A stretch of DNA of 24,238 bases. Source: a virus. Taxonomy: Duplodnaviria > Caudoviricetes. The notes under the pieces are model-generated. The model searched no databases and was not told where the DNA came from. It worked only from the letters and a program-made list of their open reading frames with translations. Below are positions 17,919-23,698 of the stretch, piece by piece. How positions within the stretch are numbered: the first letter of the stretch is position 1; each line of letters starts with the position of its first letter. The position numbers and the translations under genes are program-made. The stretch lies in IMG/VR virus record IMGVR_UViG_3300017565_000041, positions 1 through 24,238 of that record; one strand, written 5' to 3'.

Positions 17919-17947
17919 ATCATCATGCACTAGTGCATATCTGTCAA
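17919..17947 (-). promoter_or_regulatory. pR with operator ATGCACTAGTGCAT (17925-17938)
   Basis: TTGACA, 17 nt, GATGAT; perfect 14-bp palindrome in spacer, identical copy at 23657. Confidence 0.85.
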
Positions 17948-17959
17948 CGCTCCGCTGTA

Positions 17960-18001
17960 TTGCTGTATGCACCGCCGGGAGGCAGCATTGCACTCATGCA
18001 T
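17960..18001 (+). promoter_or_regulatory. pRM-like promoter and operator over cI start
   Basis: TTGCTG, 17 nt, CAGCAT; operator variant TTGCACTCATGCAT 17988-18001. Confidence 0.55.
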
Positions 18002-18838
18002 AAATCGATAGATAAAATTCTCGCTCAACTGATGTCTGCAAATGGCATAACTCAGGTTGAGCTGTCGAGCCGGACAAGCGTCGGCCAATCGACCATTTCC
18101 AGGATTCTCAAGCCTCAGGGCCCAAAAGGCATCAAAGAGCCGACTGACAAGCAGGTCAGGCCTTTGGCCGATTTCTTCGGCATCACCACCGACCAGTTAC
18201 GCGGCTATGAGCCCCTGGACGAAGTCGAGCCTCAGGCGGAAGAGCGAGCCACCCTTTCCACTGCCGATATCGTCAAGCAGATGCTGGCGAAGCACGGAAA
18301 AGGTCTTTCAGTCGATGCTCGACAGAAGATCGCTGACGCGATTGAGGAGAAATCTGCCGAGCAGGCAGCATCCAACGTCGCCACAGTTGATTTCTCGCGG
18401 CCTGGTCAAGTTGGTGACGAGGTTTGGATTGCGCACTACGACGTTCGGGCAGCGATGGGTGGCGGACAGATACCCCATGATTACCCAGAAATGCTGCAAG
18501 ACATCCGGGTCAGCCCTCGGCACCTGCGCGAAATGGGCGTGACGTTCAAAGAGCACTATCACCTCAAGATGATCACCGGCTGGGGGCAATCTATGGCGCC
18601 CACGATCAAAGACCGCGACCCGTTGCTGGTCGATATTACGATCCGAGAATTCACCGGTGACGGCATCTACCTCTTCTCTCACGACGAAATGCTGTACGTG
18701 AAACGCTTGCAGAAGAAAGGCCGTGAGCGGTTCAAGATGATTTCTGACAACAAACACCATGACCCTGAGGAGATCCGTGTGGACGACACCCACATCCTGG
18801 CCCGGGTGCTCTACGTATGGAATGGGCAGCCGGTGTAG
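17996..18838 (+). CDS. cI: CI-like repressor (HTH plus S24 peptidase)
   Basis: ITQVELSSRTSVGQSTISRIL HTH; AAMGGG cleavage region; GQSM Ser and YVKRL Lys. Confidence 0.95.
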   Translation: MHKSIDKILAQLMSANGITQVELSSRTSVGQSTISRILKPQGPKGIKEPTDKQVRPLADFFGITTDQLRGYEPLDEVEPQAEERATLSTADIVKQMLAKHGKGLSVDARQKIADAIEEKSAEQAASNVATVDFSRPGQVGDEVWIAHYDVRAAMGGGQIPHDYPEMLQDIRVSPRHLREMGVTFKEHYHLKMITGWGQSMAPTIKDRDPLLVDITIREFTGDGIYLFSHDEMLYVKRLQKKGRERFKMISDNKHHDPEEIRVDDTHILARVLYVWNGQPV

Positions 18839-18840
18839 TC

Positions 18841-19095
18841 ATGCCCCTAACCAAGCCCAACCAAGAACTCCGCCGCGACCTCCAGGGCCTGGCCTCTGAC
18901 CTGAAATGGTCAGCGGTCGAGCTGAAACGGATTGCTGAGCGCATCAGCCTGTCCGGGAATGACCCAGATGCTCAAGCCGTACTGAGGATGTGCCGGTCCT
19001 TTCAGGACGCCGAGGAAAGGCTTGCCGGATATGCAGAGGAAACCCACCTGGGGCTAATTGTCCGGGTAAAGACACCTTGCGAGGTGCCAGAGTGA
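18841..19095 (+). CDS. Hypothetical helical protein (84 aa)
   Basis: MPLTKPNQELRRDLQ...; starts 2 nt after cI stop. Confidence 0.7.
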   Translation: MPLTKPNQELRRDLQGLASDLKWSAVELKRIAERISLSGNDPDAQAVLRMCRSFQDAEERLAGYAEETHLGLIVRVKTPCEVPE

Positions 19096-19347
19096 GGATC
19101 CGCCGGGCTGGGGAGGATCGGTTGGTGAGATATGGGGATGAGGTAAAGGTGGGACGGATTGTCAGAGTAAGGCTTGGACTAGATGATCCGCCCGGATGAG
19201 GCCTGAAGTCAGGCCCGGAGTGGCGCTGCTCTGGAGCACAGATTTAGTATGAATGCAGTGTGCATGCTTCCTAGCGAATATTAAGCCCAAGCGGCCACTC
19301 CAACACTTCCATCACTGCATATAAAAATCTATCAGGGACGCAAGCGC

Positions 19348-21093
19348 ATGGCAGGGGCCAAAAGATCACGTTCAGCACGTGGAACGCAAGTCGAAAAAAT
19401 CGCTATTGCCAAATTCAGGGGATTGCAGGATCTTACCATTCCGCTAGGGGAAAGGATCACCCTATTATGCGGAAAAAACGGCACATCCAAATCTTCAATA
19501 CTAGGAATAGCCGCCCAAGTATTTAGCTTTGAAACGGATTACACAACCGGGGAACCCCTTAACTATACGACGCTTACGGGGAGCAAATTTGAGTCTCGAG
19601 TTTCCGAGCACTTTAGGCTTTCAAAAAAATTCGACCAGCCCGATTCGATGGATACAACAGTAACCATCCATGATGGTTACACCTCATCCCAGGCAGATCT
19701 CAACCTTCGCCTGTACGACTCAAAAGACAGAAATAAGCCACGCCCAATAGTTCGCGGTAATACGCTTGCCGGTGACGAGAAAAACACCAGCAGAAATGCA
19801 ACGCACCCAGTAATTTACCTTAGCCTCAAGCGGCTAACGCCAATCTCCCAGCGCGCCAAATACACTGAGCATGATATTGATTTCTTAAATCAACATCGCA
19901 GATCATTTGTCTCCCTTAGCAATCGACTGCTGAGCAAACAGTCAGCAACGTCTGTCACGGCTACTACTGGCACTATTAAGTCTGCTGCCGCCCACGGAGC
20001 AAATTATGATCATGATTCAGTGTCCGCTGGAGAAGATAATGCCGGTCAGATTTTGCTGGCGATTTACTCTTTCCGCAAGCTTAAGCAGGAGTATCCTAAA
20101 TATCAAGGAGGACTGCTTCTCATAGATGAAGCGGATGCTGGATTATTCCCAGCCGCGCAGAGACAACTAATTAAGATACTCACAGAAGAATGTAAAGACC
20201 TAAACCTTCAGGTCATTATGACTTCGCACTCACCCACCATGATTCAGGACATACACGAACTAAGTGAAAAGTCGCCAGGACAATATCAGAACATATACTT
20301 AAGTGACAGCTATGGCCCTATCAGGATCTTTGAGAATGTGACCTGGCCGCAGATCTATGCCGACCTTCACGTTCAAACTATTGATGTAGACGACAAGCTA
20401 CTACCGCCGGTTAATATTTACTTTGAAGATAAAGAGGCTTACGACCTATATACAGCCATAGTAACCGACCGATCAGTCAGAAAACTATCAAACCCCCTCA
20501 AAGACATTGCATTAGGTTGCAGCGAATACATAAAACTTGTTAAGCGTAAGGTCCCGGAATTCCACTCGAAAAGCCTTATTGTTCTCGATGGAGATGTCGA
20601 CGCCAGCGAGACAAGGGGCATGGATAGCATCGTAAAATTACCGGGCTTACTTCCACCTGATCAGATGATTTTTGAGTTCCTCTACAACCTTGAAGCAGCT
20701 GATGTGTTTTGGAAAAATAGCCGCGGATTCTCTAAGCCAGTTTTTCTCCAGATGGCTCAGAAAATCATCGACACTTTGGAAATTGATCCCGCTGACGGCA
20801 AGATTGATATGCATTCCCTTGTTGATCAACACAAGGCCAGGTCCTCGCCTGACGATCAGAGGCTGAGAAGTCATTTCAAGAATTTTGCTAAAGAAAGAGA
20901 TTTTCTATCCATGGTTGCAGGCCGAGTCACAGAAAATCCATATAGAGTCTGGGCCAAGCGTAATTATGAGCTCTCTGCAAAATTCAAGGAAGATGTCCGC
21001 AAAAAGCTCAAGTCAACGCTGATTGATGGGCACGGTATTGATTCGGCCATGCTGGCCATATTGGATCCCTCCCCCGATCTCAAAAACGCTTGA
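19348..21093 (+). CDS. ABC-type ATPase (AAA_15/AAA_21-like) with C-terminal TOPRIM-like domain, OLD-like
   Basis: Walker A GKNGTSKSS, signature VSAGE, Walker B LLLIDEADAGLFP, H-loop IMTSHS; IYFEDKEA and VLDGD; AT-richer than flanks. Confidence 0.85.
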   Translation: MAGAKRSRSARGTQVEKIAIAKFRGLQDLTIPLGERITLLCGKNGTSKSSILGIAAQVFSFETDYTTGEPLNYTTLTGSKFESRVSEHFRLSKKFDQPDSMDTTVTIHDGYTSSQADLNLRLYDSKDRNKPRPIVRGNTLAGDEKNTSRNATHPVIYLSLKRLTPISQRAKYTEHDIDFLNQHRRSFVSLSNRLLSKQSATSVTATTGTIKSAAAHGANYDHDSVSAGEDNAGQILLAIYSFRKLKQEYPKYQGGLLLIDEADAGLFPAAQRQLIKILTEECKDLNLQVIMTSHSPTMIQDIHELSEKSPGQYQNIYLSDSYGPIRIFENVTWPQIYADLHVQTIDVDDKLLPPVNIYFEDKEAYDLYTAIVTDRSVRKLSNPLKDIALGCSEYIKLVKRKVPEFHSKSLIVLDGDVDASETRGMDSIVKLPGLLPPDQMIFEFLYNLEAADVFWKNSRGFSKPVFLQMAQKIIDTLEIDPADGKIDMHSLVDQHKARSSPDDQRLRSHFKNFAKERDFLSMVAGRVTENPYRVWAKRNYELSAKFKEDVRKKLKSTLIDGHGIDSAMLAILDPSPDLKNA

Positions 21094-21099
21094 TCAGGC

Positions 21100-21165
21100 G
21101 TGCGCGAGGGAGGCTGGCCAAGTATACTGCCGGCCGCTAGACTGAGGCTGGCCAGCCTCCAAGGA
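21100..21165 (+). promoter_or_regulatory. Candidate MTase promoter with repeats
   Basis: GTGCGC, 17 nt, TATACT; GAGGCTGGCCA twice; 16-bp palindrome 21144-21159; AAGGA RBS. Confidence 0.5.
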
Positions 21166-21174
21166 TGAGTTTTT

Positions 21175-22053
21175 ATGTACTCCAACAAGCTTTATAGCCC
21201 GCTTCGCTACCCCGGCGGCAAGGCGCGTTTCGCGCCGTTCATCGCTGAGGTCATGCGCGCCAACGGCTTGGGCGGTGGCCACTATCTAGAACCCTTTGCA
21301 GGCGGGGCTGGTGTAGCTCTGGAGCTTCTATTTGACGGGCATGCTAGCCACGTCCATATCAATGATCTGGATCCAGCTGTGCATGCTTTTTGGTCTGCGG
21401 TGACTTCCGATTCGGAAGGCTTGCTACGCCTTCTTCACGACACTCCTATCACGATGGATGAGTGGCATCGGCTGCGTCAGGTGATGCTGGATCAAGATCC
21501 AAGCTTGTCGATCACGGAGAGAGGTTTCGCCACCCTCTTTGTCAATCGAACCAATCGCTCTGGCATCCTCAAAGGCGGAGTCATCGGGGGTAAGGCCCAA
21601 ACTGGGACCTACAAGCTAGACGCTCGTTTCAACAAGGACATGATCGCAGCCAGACTTGATCGTATTGCACAGCATGCGCACAACATCACTGTGCATCGGG
21701 AGGATGCGTACAGTCTTCTCACTCGGGCAGCAGAGTTGCTTCCAGATCGCTCACTGATCTACCTAGATCCCCCGTACTATGTGAAGGGACGCGATCTGTA
21801 CCGAAACTTCTACAAGCATGACGACCATTTGCAGATTTCCCAGCTGCTCCAGTCACCAGAGTTCATGAGACAATGGGTTGTGTCGTATGACAGCGCCCCC
21901 GAGATTTGCGAGATGTATAGCGGTTCAGAAGCTCTGAAGTACGGCCTCCACTACACCGCCCAAGCCCGGTATGTTGGTGATGAAGTGATGTTCTTCAAGG
22001 ATGGTCTTAAAGTGCCTGATGCCGAAATCCCAAAGGCGGCAGCCGGATGCTGA
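21175..22053 (+). CDS. D12-class (Dam-like fold) DNA amino-methyltransferase
   Basis: SPLRYPGGK, EPFAGGAG, INDLD, YLDPPYY, WVVSYD. Confidence 0.93.
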   Translation: MYSNKLYSPLRYPGGKARFAPFIAEVMRANGLGGGHYLEPFAGGAGVALELLFDGHASHVHINDLDPAVHAFWSAVTSDSEGLLRLLHDTPITMDEWHRLRQVMLDQDPSLSITERGFATLFVNRTNRSGILKGGVIGGKAQTGTYKLDARFNKDMIAARLDRIAQHAHNITVHREDAYSLLTRAAELLPDRSLIYLDPPYYVKGRDLYRNFYKHDDHLQISQLLQSPEFMRQWVVSYDSAPEICEMYSGSEALKYGLHYTAQARYVGDEVMFFKDGLKVPDAEIPKAAAGC

Positions 22054-22073
22054 CCTAGGGCATGCCTCAAATC

Positions 22074-22095
22074 AGCCCGCCTCGGCGGGCTTTTT
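22074..22095 (+). terminator. Intrinsic terminator after MTase
   Basis: AGCCCGC-CTCG-GCGGGCT-TTTT. Confidence 0.85.
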
Positions 22096-22160
22096 CATGC
22101 CTTCACGCTTTTTTGACGACCTACCCTGCACAGTGATGGCTCATCCGATTCCCTACGTTC

Positions 22161-22188
22161 GCCCGCATAGCAGTGCGGGCTTTTCTTT
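22161..22188 (+). terminator. Second intrinsic terminator
   Basis: GCCCGCA-TAGCAG-TGCGGGC-TTTTCTTT. Confidence 0.75.
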
Positions 22189-22244
22189 GCCTGCGTGATG
22201 GCGGATGGCCAGAGTGGTAGGATTGAGTTTTCTCAGGAAGAGCA

Positions 22245-22673
22245 ATGATGCGTAAGGTCCTGCAGGCGACTCTGTCAATTACCCTCCTCTGGTCAAGCGT
22301 GGCTTCCGCCGAGCCGACGTACATTGAAAAAATGGCCGGCCTTCCGGCCATCTGCAGCATTGATGCGATTGAGCAGCAGACCAAGGTTTGGGATGCTGAA
22401 AGGAAGCATGGCGAGGGCAGTAAGGGCTGGTCTGATGCCTTTCATCAGCGGCTAAGCGTAGTGCGCACGTGTGTCGATGACGCTAAAGAGAAGGGAAAAG
22501 CCTTGTACAGGGCAGAGGTCGATCTTCGTCCATCCCTGAAAAGAGAACTGGCTGACATGTACGTATCATGGCTCGGCTACCTGGACCACCTTATTGAAGA
22601 CGATCGTGATCTCTACGAACGCCAGTATGAGCTTTCAGCGAACCAGCTGAAGGCGCAGATCGATTCCTTGTAG
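22245..22673 (+). CDS. Exported hypothetical protein
   Basis: Signal peptide MMRKVLQATLSITLLWSSVASA; two Cys; AGGA RBS. Confidence 0.8.
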   Translation: MMRKVLQATLSITLLWSSVASAEPTYIEKMAGLPAICSIDAIEQQTKVWDAERKHGEGSKGWSDAFHQRLSVVRTCVDDAKEKGKALYRAEVDLRPSLKRELADMYVSWLGYLDHLIEDDRDLYERQYELSANQLKAQIDSL

Positions 22674-22691
22674 CCCTAAAAGCCACCGATG

Positions 22692-22715
22692 AGCCCGCCT
22701 AGTGCGGGCTTTTTT
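22692..22715 (+). terminator. Intrinsic terminator between convergent genes
   Basis: AGCCCGC-CTAGT-GCGGGCT-TTTTT. Confidence 0.8.
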
Positions 22716-22722
22716 GTGGGCA

Positions 22723-23550
22723 TCAAGCCTTACCGCCGTAGCGCTCCCAAGCCAAGATCATATCTTTCATGGCGCGCTTTTGAGAGTCCGGCAGAATAAA
22801 GTCGTTGTAATACTGCTTCCCGTCGAACCTGATGGTCACCTTTTTGGCATCTGCAATTTTTCTAAGCATGGCCTTGTTCTCGGCAACGGTGTCCGACCAC
22901 TCCCAAATTCCGCCGTAACCGTTATCCCGCTCGAAGTCGAGGCTGCCAAGCTGGAATGTCTGGTCATCAGCTTTGATCGTTACGCTCTGGACGAATAGCC
23001 AGCTATCAGAATGGTATTGGAGTTTCAGCCTCAGCGGCATAACCCGAGAGTTCTCGCCCTCCAATCCGAAATACAGGGACATATAGGTGTCGAGCGTAGG
23101 GATGGACTTGTGGGAAACCCAGGTTACCCCTTTGATCTCATCGGTATTTTTCTTCAGATTCTTATCTAGCTTAGCTAGGGCGGCCCTCGCCTCTTCCGCT
23201 TTCTTTGCTTCGGCTGCCAGCCTTTCAGCTTCCGCAGCCTTTTCTTCGCGATCAATGACATCAAGCAGAGCTTTTGCCGAAGCCGCTTCTGGCTTCTCCG
23301 GATAACGAGCGATCAGGTCTTGCAGTTCTGATTTTGCAGAAGCGTTATTTCCTGCCCCCTTGGCGTCCTTCGCTCGCGCCAGCAGCCTTTGAGCCCCATG
23401 TTTTTCAGCATCCAGCTCCGCCCTGAGCGTGGCGACCTCGGACTGCAGCTTGCTCACCTCTCCTTGAAGCTGTTCAGCCTTCTCCCTGTCGGCATTCCCG
23501 CATCCCGCAAGCGCCAACCCAACAGCCAATGTAACAACCGCCCTCTTCAT
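22723..23550 (-). CDS. Lipoprotein with coiled coil and TPR-like segment
   Basis: ATG 23550 with AAGGAG RBS; lipobox LALAGC; LQDLIARYPEKPEAASAKALL; beta-rich C-terminal domain. Confidence 0.85.
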   Translation of the reverse strand: MKRAVVTLAVGLALAGCGNADREKAEQLQGEVSKLQSEVATLRAELDAEKHGAQRLLARAKDAKGAGNNASAKSELQDLIARYPEKPEAASAKALLDVIDREEKAAEAERLAAEAKKAEEARAALAKLDKNLKKNTDEIKGVTWVSHKSIPTLDTYMSLYFGLEGENSRVMPLRLKLQYHSDSWLFVQSVTIKADDQTFQLGSLDFERDNGYGGIWEWSDTVAENKAMLRKIADAKKVTIRFDGKQYYNDFILPDSQKRAMKDMILAWERYGGKA

Positions 23551-23656
23551 CGCCAAAAGCTCCTTGTGTGGTTGTGTGACTCTATCAAAACGCCATCACC
23601 CACACGACATCTCGCCATGGGCTTGTGCAGATTTTTTGTGGGCGCGAGAAAATTTT

Positions 23657-23698
23657 ATGCACTAGTGCATTGACACCTAAATTGCACTGGTGCATATT
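23657..23698 (+). promoter_or_regulatory. pL with two operators
   Basis: ATGCACTAGTGCAT 23657-23670, TTGCACTGGTGCAT 23682-23695; TTGACA 23670-23675, 17 nt, CATATT. Confidence 0.9.

Follow-up and report, generated by a model that had tools for sequence, protein, structure and literature searches.

PD-lambda-5 is a two-gene prophage system in which a ParB/HEPN protein precedes a DNA methyltransferase; nine of ten phages were affected by it, the T-even ones most (PMC9519451). No paper describing its mechanism was found in the literature searched. The second group of close relatives is the OLD family (P2 Old, Gabija GajA, the retron Eco8 effector, HEC-04), whose members join an SMC-like ABC ATPase to a C-terminal domain with E...DxD in a single polypeptide. 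Of classes 1 to 4 of this family, the stand-alone class has no partner, Gabija has a UvrD helicase, the retron class has a reverse transcriptase and PARIS has the split AriA/AriB arrangement. We analysed a stretch of 24,238 nt from a Caudoviricetes virus (IMG/VR record IMGVR_UViG_3300017565_000041; hereafter, the window), a linear 24-kb virus record with a completeness of ~43%. It is a Pseudomonas-type prophage carrying a widespread two-gene cassette, in which an ABC ATPase with a probable TOPRIM domain lies ahead of a DNA methylase. Judged by sequence, the cassette is a sister variant of PD-lambda-5, with the same methylase family and a different effector.

Methylase and ATPase of the cassette

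A preliminary description of this DNA had proposed two co-oriented genes closed by a terminator, a layout that was recovered together with a conserved element between the genes:

19348..21093, + strand: gene 1, ABC (SMC/OLD-like) ATPase (residues ~13–341) with a probable TOPRIM nuclease domain (~350–570), 581 aa; AAA_15, E 3e-19
21112..21129, + strand: conserved element GGCTGGCCAAGTATACTG in the alignment of close loci, a predicted internal methylase promoter (-10 TATACT at 21123–21128) overlapping TGGCCA at 21115–21120
21175..22053, + strand: gene 2, alpha-class (D12) DNA amino-methyltransferase of the PD-lambda-5B family, 292 aa; PADLOC PD-Lambda-5_B, E 1e-111, 371 bits
22074..22100, + strand: intrinsic-terminator-like hairpin (22074–22091) followed by a T run; RNA fold z -4.1

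Gene 2 matched the PADLOC model PD-Lambda-5_B over residues 5–285 (E 9.9e-112, 371 bits), and its catalytic motifs are intact, with RYPGGK at residue 11, EPFAGGAG at 39 and DPPY at 198. DPPY is kept in 178/182 methylase homologues, and the target-recognition stretch is near-invariant, reading RTNRSGI in 146 of the 182. The earlier call of an intact D12 methylase holds as a Pfam assignment, and the enzyme is probably not Dam-like or adenine-specific, cytosine being the likely substrate. A Dam-like GATC adenine methylase was considered and found unlikely, as gene 2 scored 47 with the NCBIfam dam model (cut-off 115), GATC-containing hexamers were not among the top enriched ones, and the closest solved structure, 7m6b, which we take to be the N4-cytosine methylase M.CbeI, scored far above DpnM.

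The ABC-ATPase motifs noted earlier in gene 1 were all located: Walker A GKNGTSKS at residue 42, the signature SAGE at 226, Walker B LLLIDEAD at 256 and the H-loop TSHS at 292, followed by YFED at 358 and LDGD at 413. In a set of 75 non-identical full-length homologues (20–73% identity to the window protein), all 75 keep K48, S226, D260, E261, H294, E360, D361, D414 and D416; the Walker A serine in the usual place of a glycine is a clade trait (22/75), with K48 invariant. Pfam matches were to AAA_15 and AAA_21, and the best PHROG was phrog_3940, of unknown function. The AlphaFold model (pLDDT 79, rising to 96 in the C-terminal domain) had as its top four Foldseek matches OLD (6p74, E 1e-11), GajA twice (8sm3, 8u7i) and the retron Eco8 effector (9lp9), and residues 9–341 superposed on the heads of SMC, PtuA, OLD and GajA with Z 16–19. 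Gene 1 is thus an SMC/OLD-type ABC ATPase, although it differs from the described OLD proteins in its structural identity to them of only 10–14% and in having no full-length PADLOC match. PADLOC returned 137 weak matches to it; among the 25 listed, the highest reached 70 bits, centred on the ATPase motifs, and none was a restriction-enzyme or PD-lambda-5A model.

The C-terminal domain of gene 1 is a probable TOPRIM domain in the model, which has an alpha/beta core with the glutamate and the DxD each behind a strand. The TOPRIM region (316–406) of the HEC-04 profile was matched by gene 1 at E 2e-4 and in 32/69 homologues; AriB/DUF4435 matches were weak and confined to 2/69. A fold search with the domain alone gave nothing at E ≤ 0.001 and Z values of at most 6.1; the OLD, retron Eco2 and AriB rows had long C-terminal alignments (120, 147 and 170 residues) with Z values that were not outstanding. 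Because these structural matches are weak, the earlier TOPRIM reading is retained as probable, not proven: its acidic residues are invariant and the profile match agrees, whereas support from the fold alone is weak.

The cassette as PD-lambda-5 itself was ruled out, since its A gene encodes an ABC ATPase, whereas PD-lambda-5A is a ParB protein (HHpred 96%) with a weak HEPN-like C-terminus, unrelated to the ATPase-TOPRIM protein. A profile of seven PD-Lambda-5_A-type proteins matched nothing in positions 19675–23550 of the window. Unlike OLD classes 1 to 4, the ATPase-TOPRIM protein here has a DNA methylase as its partner, and the flanking ORFs (open reading frames) of the window gave no helicase or reverse transcriptase match. 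The check for a named system proposed earlier returned the methylase only; the pairing, which had not been recognised as a characterised system, combines a familiar methylase family with another effector. The ATPase-TOPRIM and methylase pair was undescribed in the literature searched, including the available text of the OLD review (PMC10568477) and of the HEC, DefensePredictor, Menshen and Dnd papers; Krishnan et al. 2020, on ABC ATPases, or the supplementary tables of large screens (DefensePredictor, PADLOC candidates) may include it.

Pairing of the two genes and exchange of the effector

Homologues of the two genes are co-located, a point that the preliminary description had left to be checked; the counts that follow come from similarity-ranked samples, not censuses. 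Searches that started from the ATPase found the methylase in 19/20 genome loci, the single miss lying at a contig end, and in 73/80 viral loci (the best 80 of 166), including all 64 with full flanks, the seven misses being loci cut short. For a distant clade of the ATPase, the methylase was present in 68/79 loci (the best of 416) and in 45/52 where flanks were full. A gene like PD-lambda-5A (hereafter, 5A) was found as well in 45 of these 79 loci, in a three-gene form of varied order, and six further loci of the clade had a 410-aa gene in the 5A-like place; the three that were scanned matched 5A models weakly.

The search was also run from the methylase, taking the best 80 of ~570 matches per collection and dropping duplicates and rows below 240 bits, which left 134 loci. 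The partner was 5A-like in 72, the ATPase in 38 and both in 4, with neither in 5 and 15 truncated loci. One of the two effectors thus adjoins the methylase in 114 of the 119 assessable loci; in the five with neither, the scanned neighbours matched no restriction-enzyme model. Annotated carriers of the pair include an E. coli integrative and conjugative element (ICE) and prophage, Citrobacter phage phiNP, Vibrio phage ValB1MD-2, a Streptococcus prophage and an A. baumannii record. The order and orientation of the two genes vary, convergent pairs included, and the pairing persists across phyla, mobile element types and gene orders.

Methylases with ATPase partners and with 5A partners interleave in one tree. 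In a FastTree phylogeny of 157 methylases, 16 changes of partner are required, with the starred branches demanding a minimum of 6 changes in the ATPase label (the methylase and ATPase trees were both made with FastTree and are less reliable on long branches). Among methylases 92–93% identical to one another, the partner is the ATPase in loci L013 and L163 and 5A in L170. Likewise, methylases 80–94% identical to that of the window (L026, L027, L030) pair with ATPases only ~25% identical, the extreme being L026 (94% versus 25%), and in Pseudomonas-type loci similarity starts straight after the ATPase stop codon. The effector has therefore been exchanged repeatedly on near-identical methylases, between ATPase-TOPRIM and ParB/HEPN proteins.

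Several variants of these loci were also recorded. A HerA-like ATPase (650–740 aa) with an unannotated gene of 460–490 aa recurs beside the methylase/ATPase family (L096:4868-8207, L307:5572-9157, L310:5593-9299) and may be a third effector module. In L052–L054, L112, L144, L160 and L188, the methylase is flanked by a ParB-like protein of reduced length (~370 aa), in most cases with a 300–340 aa gene of unknown function behind it; this is a further variant of the 5A module. In Vibrio phage ValB1MD-2 (L024:4995-9013), the gene behind the repressor is the ATPase, which faces both a methylase and a PD-lambda-5A split into two ORFs. In L324:937-5554, an EcoRI-type methylase and a GmrSD_N-HNH restriction enzyme stand immediately upstream of the methylase–ATPase pair. 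Citrobacter phage phiNP has a methylase gene behind its ATPase (L375:1921-2766), which the GenBank record leaves unannotated.

TGGCCA and possible modes of action

The top hexamer in the region 20–170 nt upstream of the methylase anchor was TGGCCA, found in 85/234 loci against 10.2 expected, mostly 60–100 nt ahead; in a control, it preceded 43 of 976 other ORFs. After clustering at 60% identity, it remained in ~19 of 68 clusters, with 3.0 expected. It occurred with ATPase partners (57/119), with 5A partners (19/68), a feature shared with PD-lambda-5, and with both (6/34), and in 65/110 loci with room for a promoter versus 10/83 without. Its distance to a -10-like hexamer was 17–18 nt in 54 cases and 2 nt in 12. 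An intergenic alignment of 12 close Pseudomonas-type ATPase-partnered loci showed AAGTATACTG in all 12, with TGGCCA just before it in 11. TGGCCA also occurs at 21053 and 21149. The second of them falls within a perfect 14-bp palindrome, AGGCTGGCCAGCCT (21144–21157), just ahead of the methylase ribosome-binding site and variable in relatives.

Autoregulation through a copy of the system's own site in the promoter of the methylase gene is known from restriction–modification (RM) systems. Because the predicted methylase promoters carry TGGCCA above expectation, this hexamer is predicted to be the methylase target, and the enzyme would regulate its own gene through the promoter copy; the mark is probably N4-methylcytosine (m4C). 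Published TGGCCA enzymes are analogues, none of them tied to this methylase family by sequence. The mark m4C-TGGCCA is produced by a 'DNA adenine methylase' of A. baumannii A118 (H0N27_12600) that has no evident restriction enzyme in its vicinity (PMC10287943), and the other A. baumannii record mentioned above holds the pair with a near-identical recognition stretch. TGGCCA was also predicted for a 271-aa alpha-class 'orphan' methylase of Chania (PMC5005818) and for an Acetobacterium phage methylase, for which an m4C motif was obtained that was not clean (PMC6700114). In C. difficile, TGGCCA showed no detectable mark (PMC4320837).

The cassette is very probably a defence system of some kind. 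The earlier proposal of an antiphage pair is sustained by the co-location across phyla and mobile elements, the OLD/GajA-like ATPase fold and the invariant TOPRIM residues, and gives way on one side, as the methylase family already belongs to a named, validated system. The two mechanisms proposed with it, RM with an OLD-like nuclease and an abortive guard, stay the two leading ones. We prefer the former, with confidence slightly below even: an RM-like defence in which an ATP-gated TOPRIM nuclease is licensed by unmethylated TGGCCA. The methylase would place its mark, probably m4C, at the TGGCCA sites of host and prophage. After the genome has been marked, methylation at the promoter copy would lower methylase expression, giving a burst of modification on entry. 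The ATPase-TOPRIM effector would read the methylation state and act as an ATP-gated nuclease on incoming DNA with unmethylated TGGCCA, and the outcome would be phage restriction, possibly plus cell death.

In type II RM systems the methylase is conserved and the effector changes freely, and TGGCCA is the specificity of MscI/BalI. The RM-like reading is favoured because it would explain why the partner is near-obligate, why the catalytic site is intact, why the internal promoter holds a self-site and why the effector is freely exchanged. The likeness to a type II system with this site lies in the predicted palindromic six-base target, the separate methylase, the self-site and the exchangeable effector; the differences are that no recognised restriction-enzyme fold is present, that the effector is an ATPase-TOPRIM protein and that one target appears to be kept from phylum to phylum. 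The ATPase-TOPRIM relative GajA is an endonuclease that nicks DNA at specific sequences (PMC8136825), and the host used to assay PD-lambda-5 lacked mcrBC, hsdRSM and mrr (PMC9519451), which is consistent with active methylation by that system.

Several observations weigh against the RM-like reading and its TGGCCA target. The hexamer is absent upstream in 149 of the 234 methylase loci, was found in 0/30 Bacteroidota loci and is missing upstream at the A. baumannii pair locus. It equals TTGACA at 4/6 positions, and an ordinary -35 element could account for some of the signal, although the 2-nt spacing in Pseudomonas speaks against this as the full account. No avoidance of TGGCCA was seen in the window or the cassette genes (observed/expected 1.1–1.3), which is neutral to weakly adverse. 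In Photorhabdus, TGGCCA was reported as N6-methyladenine (m6A), with the enzyme unassigned (PMC6092372), so that m4C is a probable and not a certain mark. RM systems do not usually keep a single target across phyla. PD-lambda-5, the sister system, is at its most effective against T-even phages, and the modified cytosines of these phages should stop a restriction enzyme that reads TGGCCA. On the effector side, the C-terminal domain alone matched the Xcc OLD C-terminus (6njw) weakly (Foldseek probability 0.87, E 0.13), and its Z of ~5 with VIA is level with receiver domains. Finally, one ATPase homologue (L356) has no D12 methylase and lies inside a type I system, flanked by hsdS and hsdR.

Beyond restriction in the strict sense, it is quite possible, though we would not expect it on balance, that m4C in TGGCCA serves as a self signal common to bacterial phyla, read on DNA or as a freed nucleotide by exchangeable NTPase-nuclease effectors of unrelated structure (OLD-like ATPase-TOPRIM, ParB-HEPN or both). 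In that case, the ATPase-TOPRIM protein would be the first OLD-family enzyme under the control of methylation, and PD-lambda-5 would be one branch of a larger modular system that counts thousands of 'orphan Dam' genes among its hidden members.

The best surviving rival, which we hold to be rather unlikely, is an abortive infection (Abi) guard following the logic of PrrC, Ronin and PARIS, in which the methylase would be bait for anti-restriction proteins such as DNA mimics, and its binding or inhibition would free the ATPase-TOPRIM protein to cut host tRNA or DNA. The three-gene loci of the distant clade (45/79) could be read as an RM core with a back-up, and the L356 homologue (L356:1144-8641, a Ca. 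Moranbacteria metagenome-assembled genome) occupies the PrrC/RloC position of a type I RM operon. As in PrrC, Ronin and PARIS, the effector is tied to a methylation system. Vassallo et al. term PD-lambda-5 a compacted RM+Abi system (PMC9519451), Ronin offers the precedent of a nuclease-less methylase with a toxin, and detection of anti-restriction proteins is known for ABC ATPase-TOPRIM systems such as PARIS. The cassette differs from these in having a single alpha-class methylase, not HsdMS, and an effector that is neither HEPN nor a small membrane toxin. Moreover, near-identical methylases that pair with ~25%-identical ATPases, or with an ATPase versus a ParB protein, are hard to fit to a specific protein interface. 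The order and orientation of the genes vary, convergent pairs included, and a pure decoy needs neither a conserved catalytic site nor a promoter self-site.

T-even phages degrade host DNA, and a mechanism like that of Metis would exploit this: the methylase would seed the chromosome with methylated bases, and the mononucleotide freed by a lytic phage, probably N4-methyl-dCMP (m4dCMP), would bind the ABC ATPase or ParB, switch the nuclease on and abort the infection. Such a scheme, which we regard as distinctly unlikely, would suit the swapping of two unrelated nucleotide-binding effectors on one invariant methylase and the strongest effect of PD-lambda-5 being on T-even phages (PMC9519451). 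Metis links defence to host DNA methylation by sensing N6-methyl-dAMP (m6dAMP), and its authors predict versions with their own methylase (bioRxiv 2025.11.05.686725); GajA has also been called nucleotide-sensing (PMC8136825). However, the cassette has no homologue of MisA, MisB or MisC, and so lacks a MisB-like clearing enzyme, and family library scans matched neither gene to a metallophosphatase, HAD or membrane effector. In addition, a six-base site would leave few marks, PD-lambda-5 was selected with lambda-vir, and a signal nucleotide needs no fixed recognition sequence and no early autoregulated expression of the methylase.

That the genes are independent, with an anti-restriction or orphan prophage methylase and a stand-alone OLD/HEC-04-like defence protein (or one with no defence role) merely sharing cargo hotspots, is very unlikely. 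Stand-alone ATPase-TOPRIM defence genes do exist (HEC-04), and four ATPases without methylase form one small clade (L346, L352, L356, L363), but the pairing with one methylase family holds across phyla, element types and gene orders, and in 114/119 assessable methylase loci the partner comes from the same two effectors.

Should the RM-like reading be right, a methylation-controlled class would join the OLD nucleases, and the many 'orphan adenine methylases' of prophages and ICEs would be explained as parts of a defence system. Counted in clusters, the family has >7,000 for the methylase (E ≤ 1e-60) and 320 for the ATPase (E ≤ 1e-30), and current PADLOC models do not call the pair as one unit. 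PD-lambda-5, a validated broad system, gains a concrete testable target in TGGCCA, and the presence of the pair in elements of E. coli, Citrobacter, Acinetobacter and Streptococcus means that it may affect phage susceptibility and DNA transfer.

Phage setting and neighbouring genes

PHROG matches give the window a lambdoid gene order (head, terminase, ninG, P/O, cro, cI). Two context features precede the cassette:

17933..18838, + strand: cI-like repressor (helix-turn-helix and S24); Pfam Peptidase_S24, E 7e-18; phrog_4
18817..19095, + strand: phage ORF of 92 aa between cI and the cassette; phrog_6388

The repressor may have its true start at a later ATG. The nearest relatives of the cassette are in Pseudomonas genomes, often right behind a cI-like gene, and the cI of the window was matched in 8 of 14 close loci. 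The 92-aa ORF is usual in close Pseudomonas-type loci (9/14) and is not needed for the ATPase–methylase pair. The slot between cI and pL named in the preliminary description therefore applies only in part: the cassette does lie behind cI, with the 92-aa ORF intervening and two more cargo ORFs beyond the terminator, and the sole pL candidate is a sigma-70-like site at 23670–23698. The claim that gene 1 is AT-richer than the phage backbone was confirmed, its GC content and third-position GC being 0.456 and 0.46, compared with 0.54 and 0.60 in the methylase and 0.58–0.67 and 0.67–0.87 in six backbone genes. Contigs from four RNA runs span the cassette, one tiling stopping at the terminator; they were not used as evidence, their level and strand being unreadable, their holders having been picked with this stretch and the RNA status having been guessed for three of the runs.

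Of the cargo ORFs, the first (22245–22673, + strand) encodes 142 aa with a signal-peptide-like start and has its own terminator-like hairpins at 22161–22180 and 22691–22711; it had no family match and was absent in the 14 close loci. The second (22723–23556, - strand), convergent on the cassette and present in 1/14 close loci, encodes a probable lipoprotein of 277 aa, with a lipobox-like LAGC, a coiled coil and a TPR-like stretch, and could be a superinfection-exclusion or envelope cargo gene. Behind the 92-aa ORF, positions 19095–19200 look like a repeat, in degenerate form, of the 3' part of this ORF family as it stands in L029 and L220, which suggests past recombination at this hotspot.

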